64,000 bases of DNA from Arenicellales bacterium (GTDB taxonomy: Bacteria; Pseudomonadota; Gammaproteobacteria; Arenicellales; UBA868): the NCBI GenBank assembly GCA_050256425.1, contig JBBWVW010000086.1, positions 1,015 through 65,014 on the forward strand, in the 5' to 3' direction. The translations under genes were made by a program, and so were the position numbers. The notes beneath the pieces are model-generated. The model was not told the origin of the DNA. It saw only the letters and a program-made list of their open reading frames with translations, and searched no databases. Within the stretch, counting starts at the first letter, position 1. Each line of letters opens with the position of its first letter. This document shows positions 12,253 to 24,496 of the stretch, in pieces.

Positions 12253-13209
12253 ATGCCACGCAACACAATATTTCCTCGCTCCCTAAGGTACCTTTTAGCA
12301 GTCGCCAAGCACTCCAGTTTTACGCGCGCCGCAGAATCCTTGTTCGTTTCTCAGCCCGCTCTTTCCCAACAGATAAAACAACTTGAAGCGCAGATCGGCA
12401 TTCAATTGCTGGAACGTTCCGGACGGAATGTACACCTAACAGATGCCGGAGAAATTTATGTACACCACGTCAAGCGAGCGCTCGCAGAAATAAATGCTGC
12501 TGCGCAGGCCTTAGATGACCTAAGCGACCTAACGCGAGGCTCGCTGAACCTGGGGTTAACGCCAATAACCGACTACCTAACGGCGCCTCTAATCCGAGAC
12601 TTTATCACCAAATACCCGAGAATCTCTTTAAACACTATCGAGATGACACAGCAACAGATTGAAGAAGCGGTGCTGCAGGATCAGGTAAATCTTGGAGTCA
12701 TCTTCAGTGATTCATTTTCTCTTTCTACAAGATCGGCGGATCTAGAGATCTACACACTCTTAACTGACTCCCTCGTGTTGGCGGCCGCGAGTTCCACCCA
12801 TCTAACCACTAATGCTAATGAATGCCTCTATTTGGAAGAAGTTGGCTTAGTGAAGCACCCATTAGCGTTATTGAACTCACAGTTTGAGATGCGAAAGCAA
12901 ATTGATGCGTACTTTTCTTACCATGAGATTACGCCGAACGTCACACTAGAATCCAACTCACTCGGTGTAATTATCGAAGTCGTTCGCTCCGGAGAATTAC
13001 ATACAATATTACCCGCATCAATCGTCAAGTCACTAGGCGGTCTTACTCCACTCACGGTGAGCCCGCCGCTGCCGCAACACACTGTCACTATCATTATCAG
13101 AAAGTCTGCCTATCAAAGTCAGGCTTGTAGCGCTTTCCTTAAGCTTGCGCTGCTTTGGAGTCAGGTCCCTAGAGGCGTGCTCGCAGCAGCAAACAAGGCC
13201 CATGGATAA
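12253..13209 (+). CDS. cynR: CynR-like LysR-family transcriptional regulator
   Basis: HSSFTRAAESLFVSQPALSQQIKQLE and DLSDLTRGSL resemble E. coli CynR; cyanase is nearby. Confidence 0.8.
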   Translation: MPRNTIFPRSLRYLLAVAKHSSFTRAAESLFVSQPALSQQIKQLEAQIGIQLLERSGRNVHLTDAGEIYVHHVKRALAEINAAAQALDDLSDLTRGSLNLGLTPITDYLTAPLIRDFITKYPRISLNTIEMTQQQIEEAVLQDQVNLGVIFSDSFSLSTRSADLEIYTLLTDSLVLAAASSTHLTTNANECLYLEEVGLVKHPLALLNSQFEMRKQIDAYFSYHEITPNVTLESNSLGVIIEVVRSGELHTILPASIVKSLGGLTPLTVSPPLPQHTVTIIIRKSAYQSQACSAFLKLALLWSQVPRGVLAAANKAHG

Positions 13210-13355: not shown

Positions 13356-14642
13356 TTAATCTACTTCCTTGCTGATTTGCCGATCAAACAACGACGGTCC
13401 ATAGAGCTCATTGGTGATAAGCGTGCAAATGGTCACAGCAATTATTGAGAAAATCGCCGCCTCGTAAGACAGGGTAAATTCAAGAACAATTAGAACCGTT
13501 GAAATCGGGGCCCCGAAAACAGCGGCAGCGACTGCAGCCATTCCTGCGATACTCAGACTTTCGCCTCCGGCAATTCCCAGAGCGGCTACCATTTTCCCAA
13601 ACAAACACCCTACCCCTGCGCCGATAAAAAGCGATGGCAAGTACACGCCGCCGTGCATCCCGCAGCCGATACATGTCACAGTAAGGAGCAGTTTAGATAT
13701 AACCAAAATTACTATTGTGGTCACCGCAAGATTGTTATGAAGAAGATCTGGAATTACATCAAGGCCAAGACCAAGCGCCCCGGGAACCCAAATTCCAATT
13801 ACTCCGCAGACCATTGCCGCAAAAATTAATGGCCCGATCCGCCCTTTCCAGGAATGATCAACCTTTTCGGTTACCTTCCCGAGCATAATCATGAAAACAA
13901 CTGCTGTAATCGCAAAAATAGGAGCGCCAAGGATAACAAACGGAAGTAACTCCAGCATCGAGCCTCCGACAACCTGATCGAATTGAATCCGACGTTCACC
14001 CAACATTTGTTCACTTAGGGCACTAGCCGTAATAGCCGCTATCGAAATCGGAGCAACTGCTCGTAGTGAGAATCGACGTAACACAACCTCATGGGAGAAA
14101 ACGATTGCCGCCATCGGCGTACCAAAGCCTGCGGCAATGGCGCCAGCAACACCGCATCCAATCCACGTCGAAGTAGAAATCGTGCTCCGAAGCACTCTAG
14201 AAACACCAGACCCGATAGCTCCACCGAAATGAACCAAGGGCCCATACTGTCCGACTGAAGCTGCCCCTCCAACCGAAATCAGCGCCGCCAGTGTAGAGCC
14301 AAAGCCAATTCGGATATCAACAACTTCACCAGATTGTGCAGCTTGAATCGTTTCTGCTGGGCCGTGAAACCGTTCGACTCTAAGGATGCGACGCAATCCA
14401 TATATGAGAAACGCCGCGGCCAGAAGAAATACCGGGCTGACAATTACTACCCATCCGTCCCCGTAACTTGAGGCGATGCGTCCAATAAAATCCGAGAAAT
14501 GTTTTATAGACTCTGCGATAAAAAGAAAGCCGCTCGCCGCGATGGCCATTATGGCTCCAATTCCCACTCCAACACCAACTCTTAAAAAAGAGTCTCTAAT
14601 AGGGCGATGACCCAGTTCTTTCACTGTTAAGTTTGTTTCCAT
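13356..14642 (-). CDS. CLC-family anion channel/transporter, atypical, no CBS domains
   Basis: GQYGPLVHFGG, GVAGAIAAGFGTPMAA, GGVYLPSLFIGA and AAVFGAPIS. Start trimmed to ATG 14642. Confidence 0.88.
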   Translation of the reverse strand: METNLTVKELGHRPIRDSFLRVGVGVGIGAIMAIAASGFLFIAESIKHFSDFIGRIASSYGDGWVVIVSPVFLLAAAFLIYGLRRILRVERFHGPAETIQAAQSGEVVDIRIGFGSTLAALISVGGAASVGQYGPLVHFGGAIGSGVSRVLRSTISTSTWIGCGVAGAIAAGFGTPMAAIVFSHEVVLRRFSLRAVAPISIAAITASALSEQMLGERRIQFDQVVGGSMLELLPFVILGAPIFAITAVVFMIMLGKVTEKVDHSWKGRIGPLIFAAMVCGVIGIWVPGALGLGLDVIPDLLHNNLAVTTIVILVISKLLLTVTCIGCGMHGGVYLPSLFIGAGVGCLFGKMVAALGIAGGESLSIAGMAAVAAAVFGAPISTVLIVLEFTLSYEAAIFSIIAVTICTLITNELYGPSLFDRQISKEVD

Positions 14643-14754
14643 ACTACCGGTCTGCAATCGTTGCCTTTGTGCACTATGAGACCAGCCCAGGTCAACGCCC
14701 AATCGTGCTATGGCTTCTCGAACCTTTTAAATGTTTCGTCTGGCGACGTGGCCC

Positions 14755-15195
14755 TCACCACGAACGGTACGGGAGAAACTTTCCACTCAAATCAAGGCGT
14801 ACTCGATCTCCATTTTCATTTTCTTCTCTAGATAAAGTCATTCTGAAATCGATCGCAGACATTATCCCATCCCCGAATTCCTCATGTATCAGCTCTTTAA
14901 TTGTCTCCCCATATACCCCTACCATTTCATAAAGCCTGTATATCACCGGATCCGTCGGTACGGTCTGTTCCCATTTTTTGTTTGGAAACTGCTGCAACGC
15001 AATTGATGCGTCCGCTGATAGCTCGAGATAGTTCACGACAGCATCCGCGTCCTCTTTATCCATATGGTTCATGCCAAGACAAGCCGAAACGACAAACTCA
15101 GGAGACATCGAGGTCTGCTCTGCTATCTGCCTCCATGAAACCGATTTCTTCGTTTTCGCTGTCTTGATCTCCTCTGACATCTTTACCTTATCCAT
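14755..15195 (-). CDS. cynS: Cyanate hydratase (cyanase)
   Basis: PTDPVIYRLYE, IHEEFGDGIMSAIDF and GKFLPY. ATG 15195 has a GGGAG SD. Confidence 0.96.
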   Translation of the reverse strand: MDKVKMSEEIKTAKTKKSVSWRQIAEQTSMSPEFVVSACLGMNHMDKEDADAVVNYLELSADASIALQQFPNKKWEQTVPTDPVIYRLYEMVGVYGETIKELIHEEFGDGIMSAIDFRMTLSREENENGDRVRLDLSGKFLPYRSW

Positions 15196-15298
15196 TTTCA
15201 AGCTCCCTAACCAAATTGTTTGTTGATGTATTGATGAACAACCTTATAGACCCAGGTACAACATTGTGATCTGATCGCGCCCACGCACTATGTGATAT

Positions 15299-16303
15299 CT
15301 AGTTCTGGCCAGAACGCTGAAGTAGTCTGGCGTCATTTGCCATCCCATAGATTTCAATGTTCCAACCTAACTCGACATCCAGTTGCTTTCGAGCAAGTCC
15401 GCGAAGTCGCTCGCCGAACCTCTCTATTTCAGATACGTCTAATTTCTTTTTCCCGATCAGAATATTCGGATAACGAGAATCCAGCCGTAGGCTTGAATCG
15501 GCGTCCTGCAAATCCCCAAGTTCAGCAATAATAGCTTTTGCTTTTGGGAGTTCTAGCTGCGACTTGGCATTATCGAATTCTTTTTGAATCACATAAAACG
15601 CATGTCCTGTGCGAAAACGCTCTGTTGAGTATGTTTTCTGATGTAGTGCTTTCATTCGAGAAAGCTTCTCCTCGAGTAAGGCAACGCGTCTTCGCTCTGG
15701 CTTAAGGACGGCCTGGACGATCACGCCGGTCTTAAGTTTCTCGCACAGCCTTGTGACCGTATCGACGTGGCCACGCTTTATTGTCTCTACCCGCCCATCT
15801 CGCCTCACAATCGTCGCGCGTAAAAAAGAATCGAGGATGCCGTTCTCAGCAAAACACGCGTTGCTGGCGAGGGCTCCACCAATGGTTCCGGGAATTGCCC
15901 CCAGAAAGGTAAGGTCAAAACCGTTTTCCAGCGCTTTTAGCACAATGTCTTTGGTGAATGCTCCTGCGCCCACTCGTATGGCGTTATTGGGCAGCACCTC
16001 AAAACCATTAAAGCGGGCCCCTAGGGACACTACTAGGCCCGCGAACCCCTCCTTTCTGAAAATCACATTCGAGCCTGACCCAGATGGAAGCACGGCAATT
16101 GATTCGGGCAGATCACGCATCAGAACACATAGGTCTGCCATATTCAAAGGTTGAATCAGTGCTACGGCCTTCCCACCAGAGTTAAACCACGTTTGTAGCG
16201 CAAAGTGAGCATCAAACTCAATATCACCTTGGATGTTGCCCAAGTAAGGCTTCGCGTCATTAGCCGTTAACGGCGACCCATCCTTACTGATAATGCTGCG
16301 CAA
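15299..16303 (-). CDS. MurB-fold FAD-binding protein with substituted catalytic residues
   Basis: FAD motifs GSGSNV and GAIPGTIGGAL are retained. SxGSVF is replaced by RTGHAF, HANF by YPNI, and LxxE by LGWN. Confidence 0.7.
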   Translation of the reverse strand: MRSIISKDGSPLTANDAKPYLGNIQGDIEFDAHFALQTWFNSGGKAVALIQPLNMADLCVLMRDLPESIAVLPSGSGSNVIFRKEGFAGLVVSLGARFNGFEVLPNNAIRVGAGAFTKDIVLKALENGFDLTFLGAIPGTIGGALASNACFAENGILDSFLRATIVRRDGRVETIKRGHVDTVTRLCEKLKTGVIVQAVLKPERRRVALLEEKLSRMKALHQKTYSTERFRTGHAFYVIQKEFDNAKSQLELPKAKAIIAELGDLQDADSSLRLDSRYPNILIGKKKLDVSEIERFGERLRGLARKQLDVELGWNIEIYGMANDARLLQRSGQN

Positions 16304-16474
16304 AATAGTGCTACCTCGGCGAATACTATCTTTCGTTAGTTTCTCATCCGCTTTATCTTCGACGCCATCTTAGATTGTCTGACACACCAGGGTGGCCCCG
16401 CTTGAAAAAGTGTATCTACAGCCATTCTCATTGTAAAACTCTGGGATTCTCAGTGATCAGCTCGCCTAGGCCAG

Positions 16475-16512
16475 ATAGGTTTTTCCTATTCTCTGGATAA
16501 AATAATCGTCTT
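16475..16512 (+). promoter_or_regulatory. LysR-type operator copy 2, facing DUF1348
   Basis: ATAGG-ttttt-CCTAT-tctctg-GATAA-aata-ATCGTCTT running into TTGAAT (-35-like). Confidence 0.78.
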
Positions 16513-16628
16513 GAATTTGACCACATCGCTGTCATGATGTTTCGTAGACTTGAAAGGCTCGATCTTCAAAATAGTCAAATTCACTATAGTTCGTCGAACT
16601 GAAATAACCAGAGGTTTTGGGAGGATTA

Positions 16629-17099
16629 ATGCAACCAACTGATCTTAAACCCCCGTTTAACTCGTCTACTGCAGCCAAAAAAGTACAGATGGCTGAGAAC
16701 GCATGGAATACTCGCGATCCAGAACGTGTGAGCCTGGCCTATACACCAGATAGCACATGGCGGAATCGCTCAGAACATTTCCAGGGACGAGACGCCATCG
16801 TGAAATTTCTTACCAAGAAATGGGAGAAAGAACTTGATTATCGTTTAGTCAAAGAACTCTGGGCATTTTCAGAGAACCGCATAGCCGTACGATTCCAGTA
16901 TGAATGGCGCGATCAAGAACAACATTGGCACAGATCATATGGAAACGAGCTGTGGGAATTTTCCGAAGAGGGCTTAATGCGGCGGCGGGAAGCAAGCATC
17001 AATGATGTTGCTATTGATGTTAGCCAACGTCGATTTTTCTGGCCCAGCCCAGGCCATCGACCCTCTGACCATGCTGGCCTGCTTCAGAGCCCAGAGTAA
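16629..17099 (+). CDS. DUF1348 / SnoaL-like (NTF2-fold) protein
   Basis: [36 protein letters not shown] and [10 protein letters not shown]; GGAGGA SD. Confidence 0.9.
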
Positions 17100-19877: not shown

Positions 19878-20606
19878 TCAGCTCTCGCTTTGGATATGCC
19901 GCCTCACTGCCCAGCCCGAAAAACCCCCAAGCACCAGCCATAAGATCAGACTGCTAAGGCCAGTGGCTAGCAGAAAATCTTTTGACAACTCGGAGAGTTG
20001 ATCAGCGATGGCTATCGGAAACCCTTCGTAGAGATTCTCCGCGTGCGGTGCACCGTATATATGTGGCGCGCACAGAAGAACAACCAACCCGAGCCACTTC
20101 CATGGGCTACTCAGTATGTAGGCCAGGTACATACCTGCCCCACTACAGATTACAGTCGCTGTCCACCACCATTGCCTTAGTTCTAACGCAGCACCGGAAA
20201 CCCCCGGGATTTCAGGAGAAATACCAAAAGAAGGAGCGGCAAAAAAGGCAATGAAGCCTCCAAGGCCCCAAATGATCCCGGAAGAGGCGCTGATTTCAGT
20301 ATTTTTCCCAAACTTCAGTGAGGCCGTAGCTATTAAAGCGACCAGGACAAGTGCAAATCCAACAGCAGTTAATACGTTCGATAAAATCGTAAACAGAGTT
20401 CGCTCGATTCCATCACTGGGTTCCCAGTCCTCATCATGCTGGCCATCAGCGACTTGCGCTGTGTCTCCGGCGCCGACTTTCAGGCTTTCAAATTTCTCAG
20501 CCTGAACAATGATCGGAATCACTTGCCAGCGCTGGGCCAGACTGAGGGCAATGCCCCCAATCAGCCCAGCGATAAGCGCTATAACGATCAGCCGGCGAAA
20601 CAGCAT
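19878..20606 (-). CDS. cbtA: Cobalt transporter subunit CbtA
   Basis: VIPIIVQAEKFE, WEPSDGIERT, APSFGISPEIPG, RQWWW and PHIYGAP. Start trimmed to ATG 20606. Confidence 0.88.
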   Translation of the reverse strand: MLFRRLIVIALIAGLIGGIALSLAQRWQVIPIIVQAEKFESLKVGAGDTAQVADGQHDEDWEPSDGIERTLFTILSNVLTAVGFALVLVALIATASLKFGKNTEISASSGIIWGLGGFIAFFAAPSFGISPEIPGVSGAALELRQWWWTATVICSGAGMYLAYILSSPWKWLGLVVLLCAPHIYGAPHAENLYEGFPIAIADQLSELSKDFLLATGLSSLILWLVLGGFSGWAVRRHIQSES

Positions 20607-20619
20607 AACCGCCGCGGCC

Positions 20620-20814
20620 TTAGTGGCAGGGGAAGCCTTGAGAATGGCGCATATCGTGCCCCGCATTGTGGACTGATGATGTCTGAACAAAAGCGGCGGC
20701 AAACAACACTGTGGCACCAAGGGCAAACGCGCAAACAAGCTGCAAGCCCTTGCTGGCAAGCATTGGCGCTACCTGTGGAACTTCAACAACGTTTTGGTTG
20801 ACATGATTTTGCAT
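20620..20814 (-). CDS. cbtB: Cobalt transporter subunit CbtB
   Basis: Single TM helix followed by HNAGHDMRHSQGFPCH. Confidence 0.9.
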   Translation of the reverse strand: MQNHVNQNVVEVPQVAPMLASKGLQLVCAFALGATVLFAAAFVQTSSVHNAGHDMRHSQGFPCH

Positions 20815-20888
20815 AACTAAATCTCCTGGATTAAATTTTTTGACCACTAATCTTTAACCACTTTAGATGGTATTTTCGTATCGTCCGT

Positions 20889-22824: not shown

Positions 22825-23535
22825 CTAATGACCGTAAGGATGTACTGCGCGGTGAATCGGCCGCGTGTCGTCCGCCTTTCGATCTGCGCGTGGCATTGCG
22901 ACACCGATCAAGCAATCCCGTGTCACGATCTCCGCTAGTTGATCTTCGCTCCACCCTTCAGTGCCTTCAGGGCGGGTTGGCATCACCACGTATCTGGTCT
23001 TCTGGTTGGAATCAGCGACCCTTATTTCGACATCCTCGGGCAACTGCAGGCCGAACTCTGCTAGGACTTGGCGCGGCCACCTGACCAGTCGGCGACGATA
23101 ATTAGGGGTTCTGTACCACTCAGGGGACTGACCCAGTATAGGTCTTGGGTAGCAAGAACAAAGCGTGCACACCACTACATGCTTAAGCGTTGGTGTATCC
23201 ACCAGAATCCGGGGGTTGCAATAGTCGCTCGGTGTCCCAAACTTGGTTGGCATCGTGTTAATCCAGTCAATGCCTACATCAAGACTCGCCTTTACAGGAT
23301 CGTCTATACATAGTTGCTTGTAATCTTCATCTAGCCACGCCTTTGCGACCAATCGACCCGCGGGAAGCGGCCCAAGGGTATGCATATACTCTGTCCACTG
23401 GTTATGGTCATCTTGAGTGAATAGCCCTTTTTCAATACAGAGTTCACGGACCGCTACCTCAAGTACTTCAAAGTCGCTGACCTCATCCACCATAGGCGCA
23501 GGTGGACGGTGATCGTGATCATGTGAGTTTGACAT
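22825..23535 (-). CDS. scnC: Thiocyanate hydrolase gamma subunit (cobalt-binding)
   Basis: VVCTLCSCYPRPILGQSPEWYR. Thr marks Co-type, and Arg after YP is SCNase-like (NHases have Trp). Closely resembles Thiobacillus thioparus ScnC as I recall it. Confidence 0.95.
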   Translation of the reverse strand: MSNSHDHDHRPPAPMVDEVSDFEVLEVAVRELCIEKGLFTQDDHNQWTEYMHTLGPLPAGRLVAKAWLDEDYKQLCIDDPVKASLDVGIDWINTMPTKFGTPSDYCNPRILVDTPTLKHVVVCTLCSCYPRPILGQSPEWYRTPNYRRRLVRWPRQVLAEFGLQLPEDVEIRVADSNQKTRYVVMPTRPEGTEGWSEDQLAEIVTRDCLIGVAMPRADRKADDTRPIHRAVHPYGH

Positions 23536-23612
23536 TATGTTTTCCTCTTTACGTCAGACGAGTTCTTTTTCGTTTTTTACTTTGTGATCGATAGTAAAAT
23601 TATCTAGGCCGA

Positions 23613-23966
23613 TCAAATAGCCTCTAACCATCTTTCAGATAGTTCGGTCTCGAGCGTATCCCCTGCAAATTTGGGGGGATAATCTGGCCATAGGTCAGTT
23701 TGATTGAACACTACACTGTAGAACCACTCTGGAGTGTCTGTGTTATCCCAAGCCTCGTCCTCGGCAGCAGGACTTTCGTAAACCAACTTGACGACTATTG
23801 CCTCTGCTTCGCGAAGGTACATCTGCGAACGGGAATAGAAGATATCTGGCAAGTTGCGGATGCGCACTTTATCGCCCACGTTAAACTTCGGCTTTCCTGC
23901 CTCTCCCTTGAAGCACTGAGGATCCCCAATGCCAGTTGCTTTCTCAGCGTGATGATTATTACTCAT
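23613..23966 (-). CDS. scnA: Thiocyanate hydrolase alpha subunit
   Basis: ATGIGDPQCFKG, KFNVGDKVRI, LVYESPAAEDEA and DTLETE. Confidence 0.93.
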   Translation of the reverse strand: MSNNHHAEKATGIGDPQCFKGEAGKPKFNVGDKVRIRNLPDIFYSRSQMYLREAEAIVVKLVYESPAAEDEAWDNTDTPEWFYSVVFNQTDLWPDYPPKFAGDTLETELSERWLEAI

Positions 23967-24393
23967 AAATCTCCCCTCGCTTCTTAACCTCGTCGATCTT
24001 ATTAACCAATTCGGTCAGGGTAATATGCTGCTTGTCGACCAGCACTAGCGCCGCTGTCATCAACCACCTGCCGTAATACGGTAGCCCGAGGTATTGGGTC
24101 TGCCCGACGTCCACGTTTTGCCGCCGCCTACGCTCTTCAGCGTTCCAAACGCCACGCCATGCTAATACCTCACAGGTGACAAAAGTATTGTGTTCCCAAA
24201 TCTCCTCTTCTTTTTCTTCCCACGTTATAGGAATGTCGGCCTCACCTCCAACATCATGGGAGGAGCGTGTGTAAGCGCGGTAATGCGCGTTATCAATTAG
24301 GTCGGGATAAGGGGCGTGCTGCGGCTGATGAAGCGCAGGCTGAAGCTGCGCAACAATATTTAGATGCCGCATGATATTTTCGCGAGTTGACAT
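23959..24393 (-). CDS. scnB: Thiocyanate hydrolase beta subunit
   Basis: QPALHQ, HDVGGEAD, EKEEEIWE, LAWRGVWNAEERRRRQN and YLGLPYYGRW. Start trimmed to ATG 24393; overlaps scnA by 8 nt. Confidence 0.93.
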   Translation of the reverse strand: MSTRENIMRHLNIVAQLQPALHQPQHAPYPDLIDNAHYRAYTRSSHDVGGEADIPITWEEKEEEIWEHNTFVTCEVLAWRGVWNAEERRRRQNVDVGQTQYLGLPYYGRWLMTAALVLVDKQHITLTELVNKIDEVKKRGEIYE

Positions 24394-24458
24394 ATCTGTT
24401 TTGCGTCTCCGAATTGGAATTCTCAGCTTAAAACTACTCCTTGATCGTCCTTTGTGCC

Positions 24459-24496
24459 AAGACATTCTGGTTATTGACTGTATAAGAAAAGTCTAT
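24459..24496 (-). promoter_or_regulatory. LysR-type operator copy 4 (diverged), facing scnB
   Basis: Minus strand ATAGA-ctttt-CTTAT-acagtc-AATAA-ccag-AATGTCTT with identical spacing, running into TTGGCA; TAGTTT lies 18 nt further on. Confidence 0.65.

Follow-up and report, generated by a model that had tools for sequence, protein, structure and literature searches.

MurB, the UDP-N-acetylenolpyruvoylglucosamine reductase (EC 1.3.1.98), carries out the reduction of enolpyruvyl-UDP-N-acetylglucosamine (EP-UDP-GlcNAc), dependent on reduced nicotinamide adenine dinucleotide phosphate (NADPH). Its gene is an essential housekeeping gene, usually in single copy and often within a cell-wall/division cluster, and the enzyme is an antibiotic target. 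In Escherichia coli MurB, Arg159, Ser229 (the proton donor) and Glu325 are catalytic, Asn233 binds the substrate and Arg214 faces the flavin. The E. coli cyanase gene cynS is the middle gene of cynTSX, preceded by the gene for the carbonic anhydrase CynT and followed by that for the major facilitator superfamily protein CynX, all under the LysR-type regulator CynR. Here we examine a MurB-like gene lying directly upstream of cynS in a thiocyanate island of an Arenicellales bacterium, within a 64,000-nucleotide (nt) stretch of contig JBBWVW010000086.1 (the window). An original prediction, made from the letters of the window, had described its product as a MurB-fold flavoprotein with replaced catalytic residues; our own reading leans towards a repurposed, non-essential accessory flavoprotein.

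The locus resembles cynTSX in that a LysR regulator and an operator-like motif stand beside a three-gene unit whose middle gene is cynS and whose last gene encodes a membrane protein. It differs in that a MurB-derived protein comes first (not CynT) and a ClC protein last (not CynX), and in that the unit lies inside a thiocyanate hydrolase/SQR island; a scan of island open reading frames (ORFs) found no carbonic anhydrase. The protein itself is most like the short "type II" MurBs (Brucella ovis 9DTK, Staphylococcus aureus 1HSK, Listeria 3TX1), with which it shares a three-domain fold (template modelling, TM, scores 0.77-0.86), full-length homology (E 4e-19 to 9DTK) and the PCMH-type motifs GxGSN, PGxxGGA and NA. 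Unlike them, it has Ser229, Asn233, Glu325 and Tyr125 replaced, a position equivalent to Arg159 that varies among its relatives, and no MurB_C match, and its gene is dispensable, stands outside the cell-wall cluster and is found only in the thiocyanate island. Our literature search turned up neither a paper that joins MurB-like proteins with thiocyanate hydrolase nor one on this gene, and no member of the MurB family described as anything other than a MurB. LucY, called a "MurB homolog" (PMC4408115), is an ordinary Geobacillus MurB and shows only that MurBs hold their flavin tightly.

RESULTS

A MurB fold with an altered active site

The ORF (15299-16303, minus strand) starts with TTG and has GAGG 10 nt upstream of the start. 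Pfam gave FAD_binding_4 (PF01565), a flavin adenine dinucleotide (FAD)-binding domain, as the sole match (E 1.8e-13, residues 48-175); MurB_C (PF02873) matched neither this protein nor any member of its clade. The top NCBIfam match, to the MurB equivalog NF010480, reached 119 bits where the cut-off is 259, and the protein fell far under the cut-off of each of six further MurB models. The nearest solved structure by sequence is B. ovis MurB (9DTK), aligned over residues 21-324. AlphaFold2, run on an alignment of 55 rows, gave a model with a mean predicted local distance difference test score (pLDDT) of 87.7 and a predicted TM score (pTM) of 0.85, and its 18 top Foldseek matches in the PDB were all MurBs, with TM scores of up to 0.86 (Listeria, Brucella and S. 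aureus MurB). Other FAD_binding_4 enzymes ranked from 19 onward and matched via the FAD domain only (TM 0.39-0.57). D-lactate dehydrogenase, DprE1 and cytokinin oxidase (VAO/PCMH) share that domain, which alone superposes, whereas their cap domains are unrelated; the MurB-like protein is clearly MurB-derived. Even its C-terminal domain, missed by the MurB_C sequence profile, has a MurB-like fold in the model. The MurB fold is confirmed by the predicted structure, and the MurB hidden Markov model cut-offs are missed.

The FAD-binding motifs that the original prediction had read as intact were all found (G75-x-G77-S78-N79, P138-G-T-I-G-G-A144 and N148-A149), and the protein probably still binds FAD. 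For residue mapping we aligned it with E. coli MurB and 54 relatives. Arg159 is kept as R185; Ser229 corresponds to H234 (in TGHAF), Asn233 to V238, Glu325 to N315 (in GWNIE) and the His of HxNF to Y278, and Tyr125 is also replaced. At the Arg159, Ser229, Asn233 and Glu325 columns, 45 to 47 of the 47 canonical MurB rows have R, S, N and E. The loss of the catalytic Ser and Glu and the change of HANF to YPNI, first seen by eye, are thus borne out by the alignment.

We compared these positions across the 17 distinct intact members of the clade. The Ser229 position is His in 13, Tyr in three and Pro in one; 16 of the 17 have His at the Arg214 position (His221 in the window's protein); the Asn233 position is variable, and the Glu325 position may be N, K, R, S or H. 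A conserved new catalytic dyad (His + Asn) was considered and is ruled out by this variation at the Glu325 position and by the Ser229 position not being invariant. Among the columns conserved in canonical MurBs (n = 71), the clade keeps 74% of those in the FAD-binding half and only 30% of those in the C-terminal substrate domain. Invariant positions number 49 in the clade, and 14 clade-invariant residues depart from the canonical consensus, including T232, L262, L272, D275, I281, D289 and F296; at D275, 45 of 46 canonical rows have Ser. As far as the alignment can tell, the MurB active site is gone, with no single fixed new triad in its place, while the surroundings of the flavin keep two histidines.

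The host genome has a canonical murB on a separate contig, in the setting murC-murB-ftsQ-ftsA, as had been expected; its product scores 357 bits, has MurB_C (112 bits) and is only 20% identical to the MurB-like protein. The changed catalytic positions, the sub-cut-off score and the separate canonical murB all agree with the earlier view that the window's gene is not the cell's MurB. Judged by its residues, the protein cannot act as MurB in peptidoglycan synthesis, because those that bind and protonate EP-UDP-GlcNAc are gone; the ordinary murB of the genome serves that role.

A small clade derived from an alphaproteobacterial-type murB

A word-indexed search of 5.8 billion proteins returned relatives at 87-99% identity, a group at ~41%, and then alphaproteobacterial canonical MurBs at ~35%. 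When 1.84 billion representatives at 50% identity were scanned exhaustively with phmmer, only ~4 full-length clusters of the MurB-like kind emerged; beyond them, scores fall from 187 bits to ~104 bits, the level of ordinary MurBs. The 17 intact members form five subgroups, 35-42% identical to one another. A maximum-likelihood tree recovers them as a monophyletic clade (support 100) whose stem is 3.2 changes per site long, nested inside Rhodobacterales/Paracoccaceae-type MurB (support 98), a placement to be read with the caveat that the canonical rows were picked by similarity to the query. Given this nesting and the low identity to the host's own MurB, the gene is, on the evidence of the tree, derived from an alphaproteobacterial-type murB and not from that of the host. 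Capture of a murB that already stood beside cynS is ruled out: 16 Rhodobacterales murB loci had no cynS, DUF1348 or other island genes within 10 kb.

Strict linkage to the island and repeated inactivation

As the original prediction had it, the gene lies outside the cell-wall cluster and before cynS on the same strand, with a gap that measured 97-103 nt. Its homologues keep this neighbourhood: at every locus found the gene sits between the divergent DUF1348 gene and cynS, and the order DUF1348(-)/MurB-like/cynS/clc is identical throughout. Among 243 genomes of the order, a ScnC orthologue is present in 17, and the MurB-like gene is confined to the window's genus and never found without ScnC; the seven genomes of other families in the order that carry thiocyanate hydrolase all lack the MurB-like gene. 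A genome of the sister genus in the same family (G033) has an island that lacks all three of DUF1348, the MurB-like gene and cynS. There (L056, G033:C33, 7835-9162) a 266-amino acid (aa) ORF replaces these three genes, and cbtA is placed after the ATP-binding cassette (ABC) permeases. This ORF carries an LDVGCGGG motif, which, from a reading of the motif only, we take to be typical of S-adenosylmethionine-dependent methyltransferases.

Four types of inactivated allele occur. The L057 type (genome G012) has only the last ~100 codons, owing to a 5' deletion, and has in-frame stops; the L088 type has a 210-nt deletion and two 1-nt deletions; the L077 type has a 1-nt deletion at +25 and a 57-nt deletion; and the L017 type (SAT1475) has a +1 frameshift. 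For the first three, identical lesions recur in independent assemblies, so we regard them as real alleles, and assembly error is ruled out as their source. Index blocks that list the L057 type number 413; the L088 type was seen in Tara, GOS and a metagenome-assembled genome (MAG). The L017 frameshift may be a strain polymorphism. We left out one further truncated copy, at L012, as an artefact of a low-complexity contig tail (L012:2300-2478), where a contig-end repeat (translated KTSRKNQSKKPVEKTS...), probably an assembly artefact, cuts off the ORF.

The genes scnBAC, sqr, DUF1348 and cynS are complete in the loci with a broken MurB-like gene, and between L015 and L017 they are strongly constrained (omega, the ratio of nonsynonymous to synonymous substitution rates or dN/dS, 0.01-0.05). 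Compared with an intact relative in their original frame, the broken copies still show omega values of 0.32-0.43, and so the lesions are recent. Since other thiocyanate hydrolase-bearing genomes of the order do without the gene, and since it has been repeatedly inactivated while scnBAC and cynS stayed intact, the MurB-like gene is a dispensable, optional accessory and not a core pathway enzyme. Nor is it an essential housekeeping gene of a cell-wall cluster, as a murB should be: the canonical murB is elsewhere, and this copy is broken in several lineages.

The clc gene is a second dispensable gene of the MurB-like/cynS/clc unit. It is split or truncated in L088-type and L017-type loci (L100-L104, L017:11464-12385, L120:1946-2503), and has a frameshift-like break in L064:7601-8942.

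Relaxed purifying selection

Intact copies gave dN/dS values of 0.25-0.37 in five pairs (the window against 87%-identical relatives, and pairs within the second subgroup); the bootstrap 95% intervals lay between 0.16 and 0.58, and no replicate reached 1. The constraint acts on both halves of the protein. All five subgroups retain an intact frame, which remains open even between subgroups with saturated synonymous sites. The gene is thus under purifying but relaxed selection and is not decaying neutrally. A dN/dS near 1 and a want of any link to cyn or scn genes had been named as signs against a kept function; we see instead these low ratios and a strict linkage. Between the window and other subgroups the MurB-like protein is 41-43% identical, against 86-92% for ScnC, SQR and the binding protein.

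Joint loss with cbtBA

The predicted cobalt transporter genes of the island, cbtB-cbtA, are missing from each of the four degraded types (loci L017, L057, L077, L088 and L099-L119) and from no others, and there are no discordant cases among the ~35 loci covering both sites. The gap from the binding-protein gene to dsrE is 415-526 nt in the degraded types, with short cbtA remnants inside, compared with ~1330 nt elsewhere, and the end-points of the deletion differ among all four. CbtA was found nowhere in the assemblies of two such genomes, G012 and G022, while other island-bearing genomes have one copy each; G012 and G022 must therefore get cobalt for their thiocyanate hydrolase otherwise. In the four lineages with cbtBA deleted, scnBAC is intact and constrained.

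A DNA tree of the flanking genes (4,077 columns) places the L057 type as sister to a cbtBA-positive lineage with an intact MurB-like gene, and the L088, L077 and L017 types as a grade beneath the intact L014/L070 group, so that at least three changes are needed. The approximately unbiased test rejects uniting the last three types (p 9e-5; the group was named after the tree had been seen). We treat this joint loss as a lead and not as proof; it may reflect functional coupling, or it may reflect the joint erosion of the least constrained genes of the island.

Organization of the island

The gene lies in a low guanine-plus-cytosine (GC) block of ~17 kb (~9-26 kb of the window), with ~47% GC against ~59% elsewhere (Table 1). 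The order is ABC permeases and ATPase, LysR, clc, cynS, MurB-like, DUF1348 (opposite strand), DUF1641 and type III SQR, continuing with tusA and dsrE, cbtA and cbtB, a gene for an NMT1-type binding protein with a twin-arginine translocation signal, a 111-aa gene and scnBAC. The scnBAC products are 87-90% identical across lineages. Synteny over the whole block extends to MAGs that bear the labels Gammaproteobacteria, Proteobacteria UBA2996, SI039_bin78 and Acidiferrobacteraceae SAT1475, as well as to numerous contigs from marine metagenomes. Island GC is 44-47% in L013 and L056 and 51-54% in L014, L015 and L017; the differences between loci, together with the low GC of the island in a ~59% GC contig, suggest its recent horizontal acquisition in the window's genome.

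Table 1. The MurB-like gene and neighbouring features of the island, in window coordinates
Feature	Coordinates	Strand	Remarks
MurB-derived FAD-binding protein gene, MurB catalytic Ser/Asn/Glu replaced	15299-16303	minus	334 aa
LysR-type regulator of the island (CynR-like)	12253-13209	plus	Pfam HTH_1 and LysR_substrate; syntenic
ClC-type channel/transporter gene, third in unit	13356-14702	minus	Voltage_CLC, E 3.6e-59; syntenic at all loci
cynS (cyanase), second in putative unit	14755-15201	minus	Cyanate_lyase and CYNS_N; NCBIfam 192 bits; probable ATG at 15195
Divergent control region, MurB-like/DUF1348 spacer	16304-16616	.	LysR-type operator-like motif and promoter-like site
DUF1348 (SnoaL/NTF2-like) gene, divergent, always adjoining the MurB-like gene	16617-17099	plus	E 7.6e-64; syntenic
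cbtA, predicted cobalt transporter gene	19878-20759	minus	Pfam CbtA, E 4e-46
cbtB, predicted cobalt transporter gene	20620-20847	minus	cbtB-like ORF
scnB-scnA-scnC, three-subunit thiocyanate hydrolase (nitrile hydratase family), island core	22825-24465	minus	NHase_alpha, NHase_beta_C, NHase_beta_N

The DUF1348/MurB-like spacer of all lineages (L004, L013-L015, L057, L069, L073 and L076 among them) keeps an operator-like motif, TTATCGA..GATAAGAAAATC.GATC, at ~16470-16512 in the window; its distance to the MurB-like start codon ranges from ~45 to ~170 nt. A promoter scan placed a promoter-like site for the minus strand, facing the MurB-like gene, at 16437-16409, and the scan gave no terminator-like site in the gap between the MurB-like gene and cynS. 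The two genes are probably co-transcribed.

DUF1348 ranks with the island genes under the strongest constraint (dN/dS 0.02-0.15) and is never lost where cynS is present, even with the neighbouring MurB-like gene deleted. As a candidate for an unassigned core step, it seems stronger than the MurB-like gene.

DISCUSSION

On balance, and with a degree of confidence just above even, we think that the MurB-like protein is a repurposed, non-essential accessory flavoprotein acting on another small substrate or partner. In outline, a copy of a Rhodobacterales-type murB would have been captured into the thiocyanate/cyanate island of one uncultured marine gammaproteobacterial genus and would then have diverged very fast, keeping the two FAD-binding domains while the third, substrate-binding domain was remodelled and the residues for EP-UDP-GlcNAc were lost. 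The gene would lead the murB-like/cynS/clc unit, read from a divergent promoter that is shared with DUF1348 and putatively controlled by the LysR (CynR-like) protein; as first gene of such a unit its product is expected to be made together with cyanase on island induction. FAD would still be bound, with His234 (or Tyr) and His221 in the places of MurB Ser229 and Arg214, and the flavoprotein would play its accessory role with a different small substrate or partner. Its usefulness may be tied to the CbtAB cobalt uptake of the same island, an apparent tie that comes from inactivation of the gene where cbtBA is deleted. A redox role is presumed here, as is any link to cobalt. The original prediction went further and placed a repurposed FAD protein in cyanate/thiocyanate metabolism; strict linkage to the island and the distinction from the cell's MurB uphold part of that view, but nothing ties the protein to the chemistry of thiocyanate, cyanate or carbonyl sulfide.

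Several observations weigh against a selected flavoprotein role, or against its cobalt connection. First, the MurB-like gene is the fastest-evolving and least constrained gene of the island; in the L014/L015 pair its dN/dS is 0.26, compared with 0.006-0.105 for all neighbours. Second, the substituted "catalytic" positions are not constant inside the clade, and even the Arg159 position varies (R, M, D, G or E among the 17 members). Third, classical NADPH-dependent reduction is doubtful, since most of the MurB residues for NADPH and substrate are gone. Fourth, the association with cbtBA rests on three to four events, and the independent pairs, at 3:0, are not significant in a sign test. The clc gene is also broken in the L088 and L017 types, so the co-loss may be a general erosion of weakly constrained genes. 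Lastly, the L017-type frameshift has an intact counterpart 98.2% identical to it, and the strain bearing this intact allele is not among the ~35 loci for which cbtBA status is known.

The rival reading that survives best, to which we give a minority chance, is a non-catalytic pseudoenzyme: a MurB scaffold, with or without FAD, serving as structural partner, chaperone or small-molecule sensor for another island protein such as cyanase, ClC or CbtAB, with no redox turnover. The MurB positions for substrate, NADPH and catalysis are all lost or variable, as would be expected of such a protein; a fast rate paired with a moderate dN/dS is what one typically sees in binding proteins and not in enzymes; and the clade-specific conserved residues L262, L272, D275, I281, D289 and F296 gather in the remodelled C-terminal domain. 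Yet the FAD-binding loops are the best conserved part, with 74% retention, and the histidines at the Ser229 position (13 of 17, with Tyr in three) and the Arg214 position (16 of 17) resemble an active-site environment at the flavin.

It is also possible, though we think it rather unlikely, that the gene is an evolutionary relic, a captured murB copy with no present function that is decaying slowly, its constraint being residual or due to linkage to the cynS promoter region. That the gene evolves fastest in its island, that it exists as four different inactivated alleles, three of them recurring in independent assemblies, and that cell and island work without it would all fit. Against a relic, dN/dS is well below 1 in every pair, the frame of 300 codons is open across subgroups with saturated synonymous sites, and 49 residues are invariant in a confidently predicted fold. 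The degraded alleles, with omega of 0.32-0.43 against an intact relative, bear recent lesions and do not stand at the end of a long neutral drift.

A core pathway flavoenzyme, converting thiocyanate, cyanate, carbonyl sulfide or a sulfur intermediate (for example oxidizing thiocyanate to cyanate to feed cyanase), is improbable. Its appeal lies in the position of the gene, directly upstream of cynS in an island with thiocyanate hydrolase, SQR and cyanase, and found nowhere else. However, abundant marine lineages keep scnBAC, sqr and cynS strongly constrained after losing the gene, thiocyanate hydrolase-bearing genomes of other families never carry it, and the active-site positions are not conserved in the clade. 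A second, divergent yet functional MurB isozyme would account for the full-length MurB fold and the Arg159 equivalent kept in the window's protein, but is close to refuted by the replacement of Ser229, Asn233 and Glu325, by scores far under all MurB cut-offs with no MurB_C match, and by a gene repeatedly lost beside a canonical murB.

One further reading deserves mention as a long shot: the flavoprotein might be a functional partner of CbtAB, either as a flavin-dependent reductase that releases or prepares the imported cobalt (by reduction of Co(III) complexes, for instance) or by taking part in the redox maturation of thiocyanate hydrolase at its Co(III)/Cys-sulfinate centre. Such a partnership would explain the decay of the MurB-like gene whenever cbtBA is lost. 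If true, the MurB fold would gain its first function outside peptidoglycan synthesis, and enzymes of the nitrile hydratase family a new cobalt-handling component.

The family is tiny, found in one uncultured genus, and its gene is dispensable, which limits the significance of these findings. Still, automatic annotation would name this gene "UDP-N-acetylmuramate dehydrogenase", wrongly. MurB has been treated as a single-function protein; here its scaffold appears to have been recruited into an unrelated setting, a thiocyanate/cyanate island that moves horizontally and is widely found in ocean metagenomes, and to be an instance of a MurB scaffold that can be kept under selection after losing its chemistry. 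Its repeated joint loss with cbtBA offers a testable lead on the role of the MurB-like protein and on the supply of cobalt to thiocyanate hydrolase in the sea.

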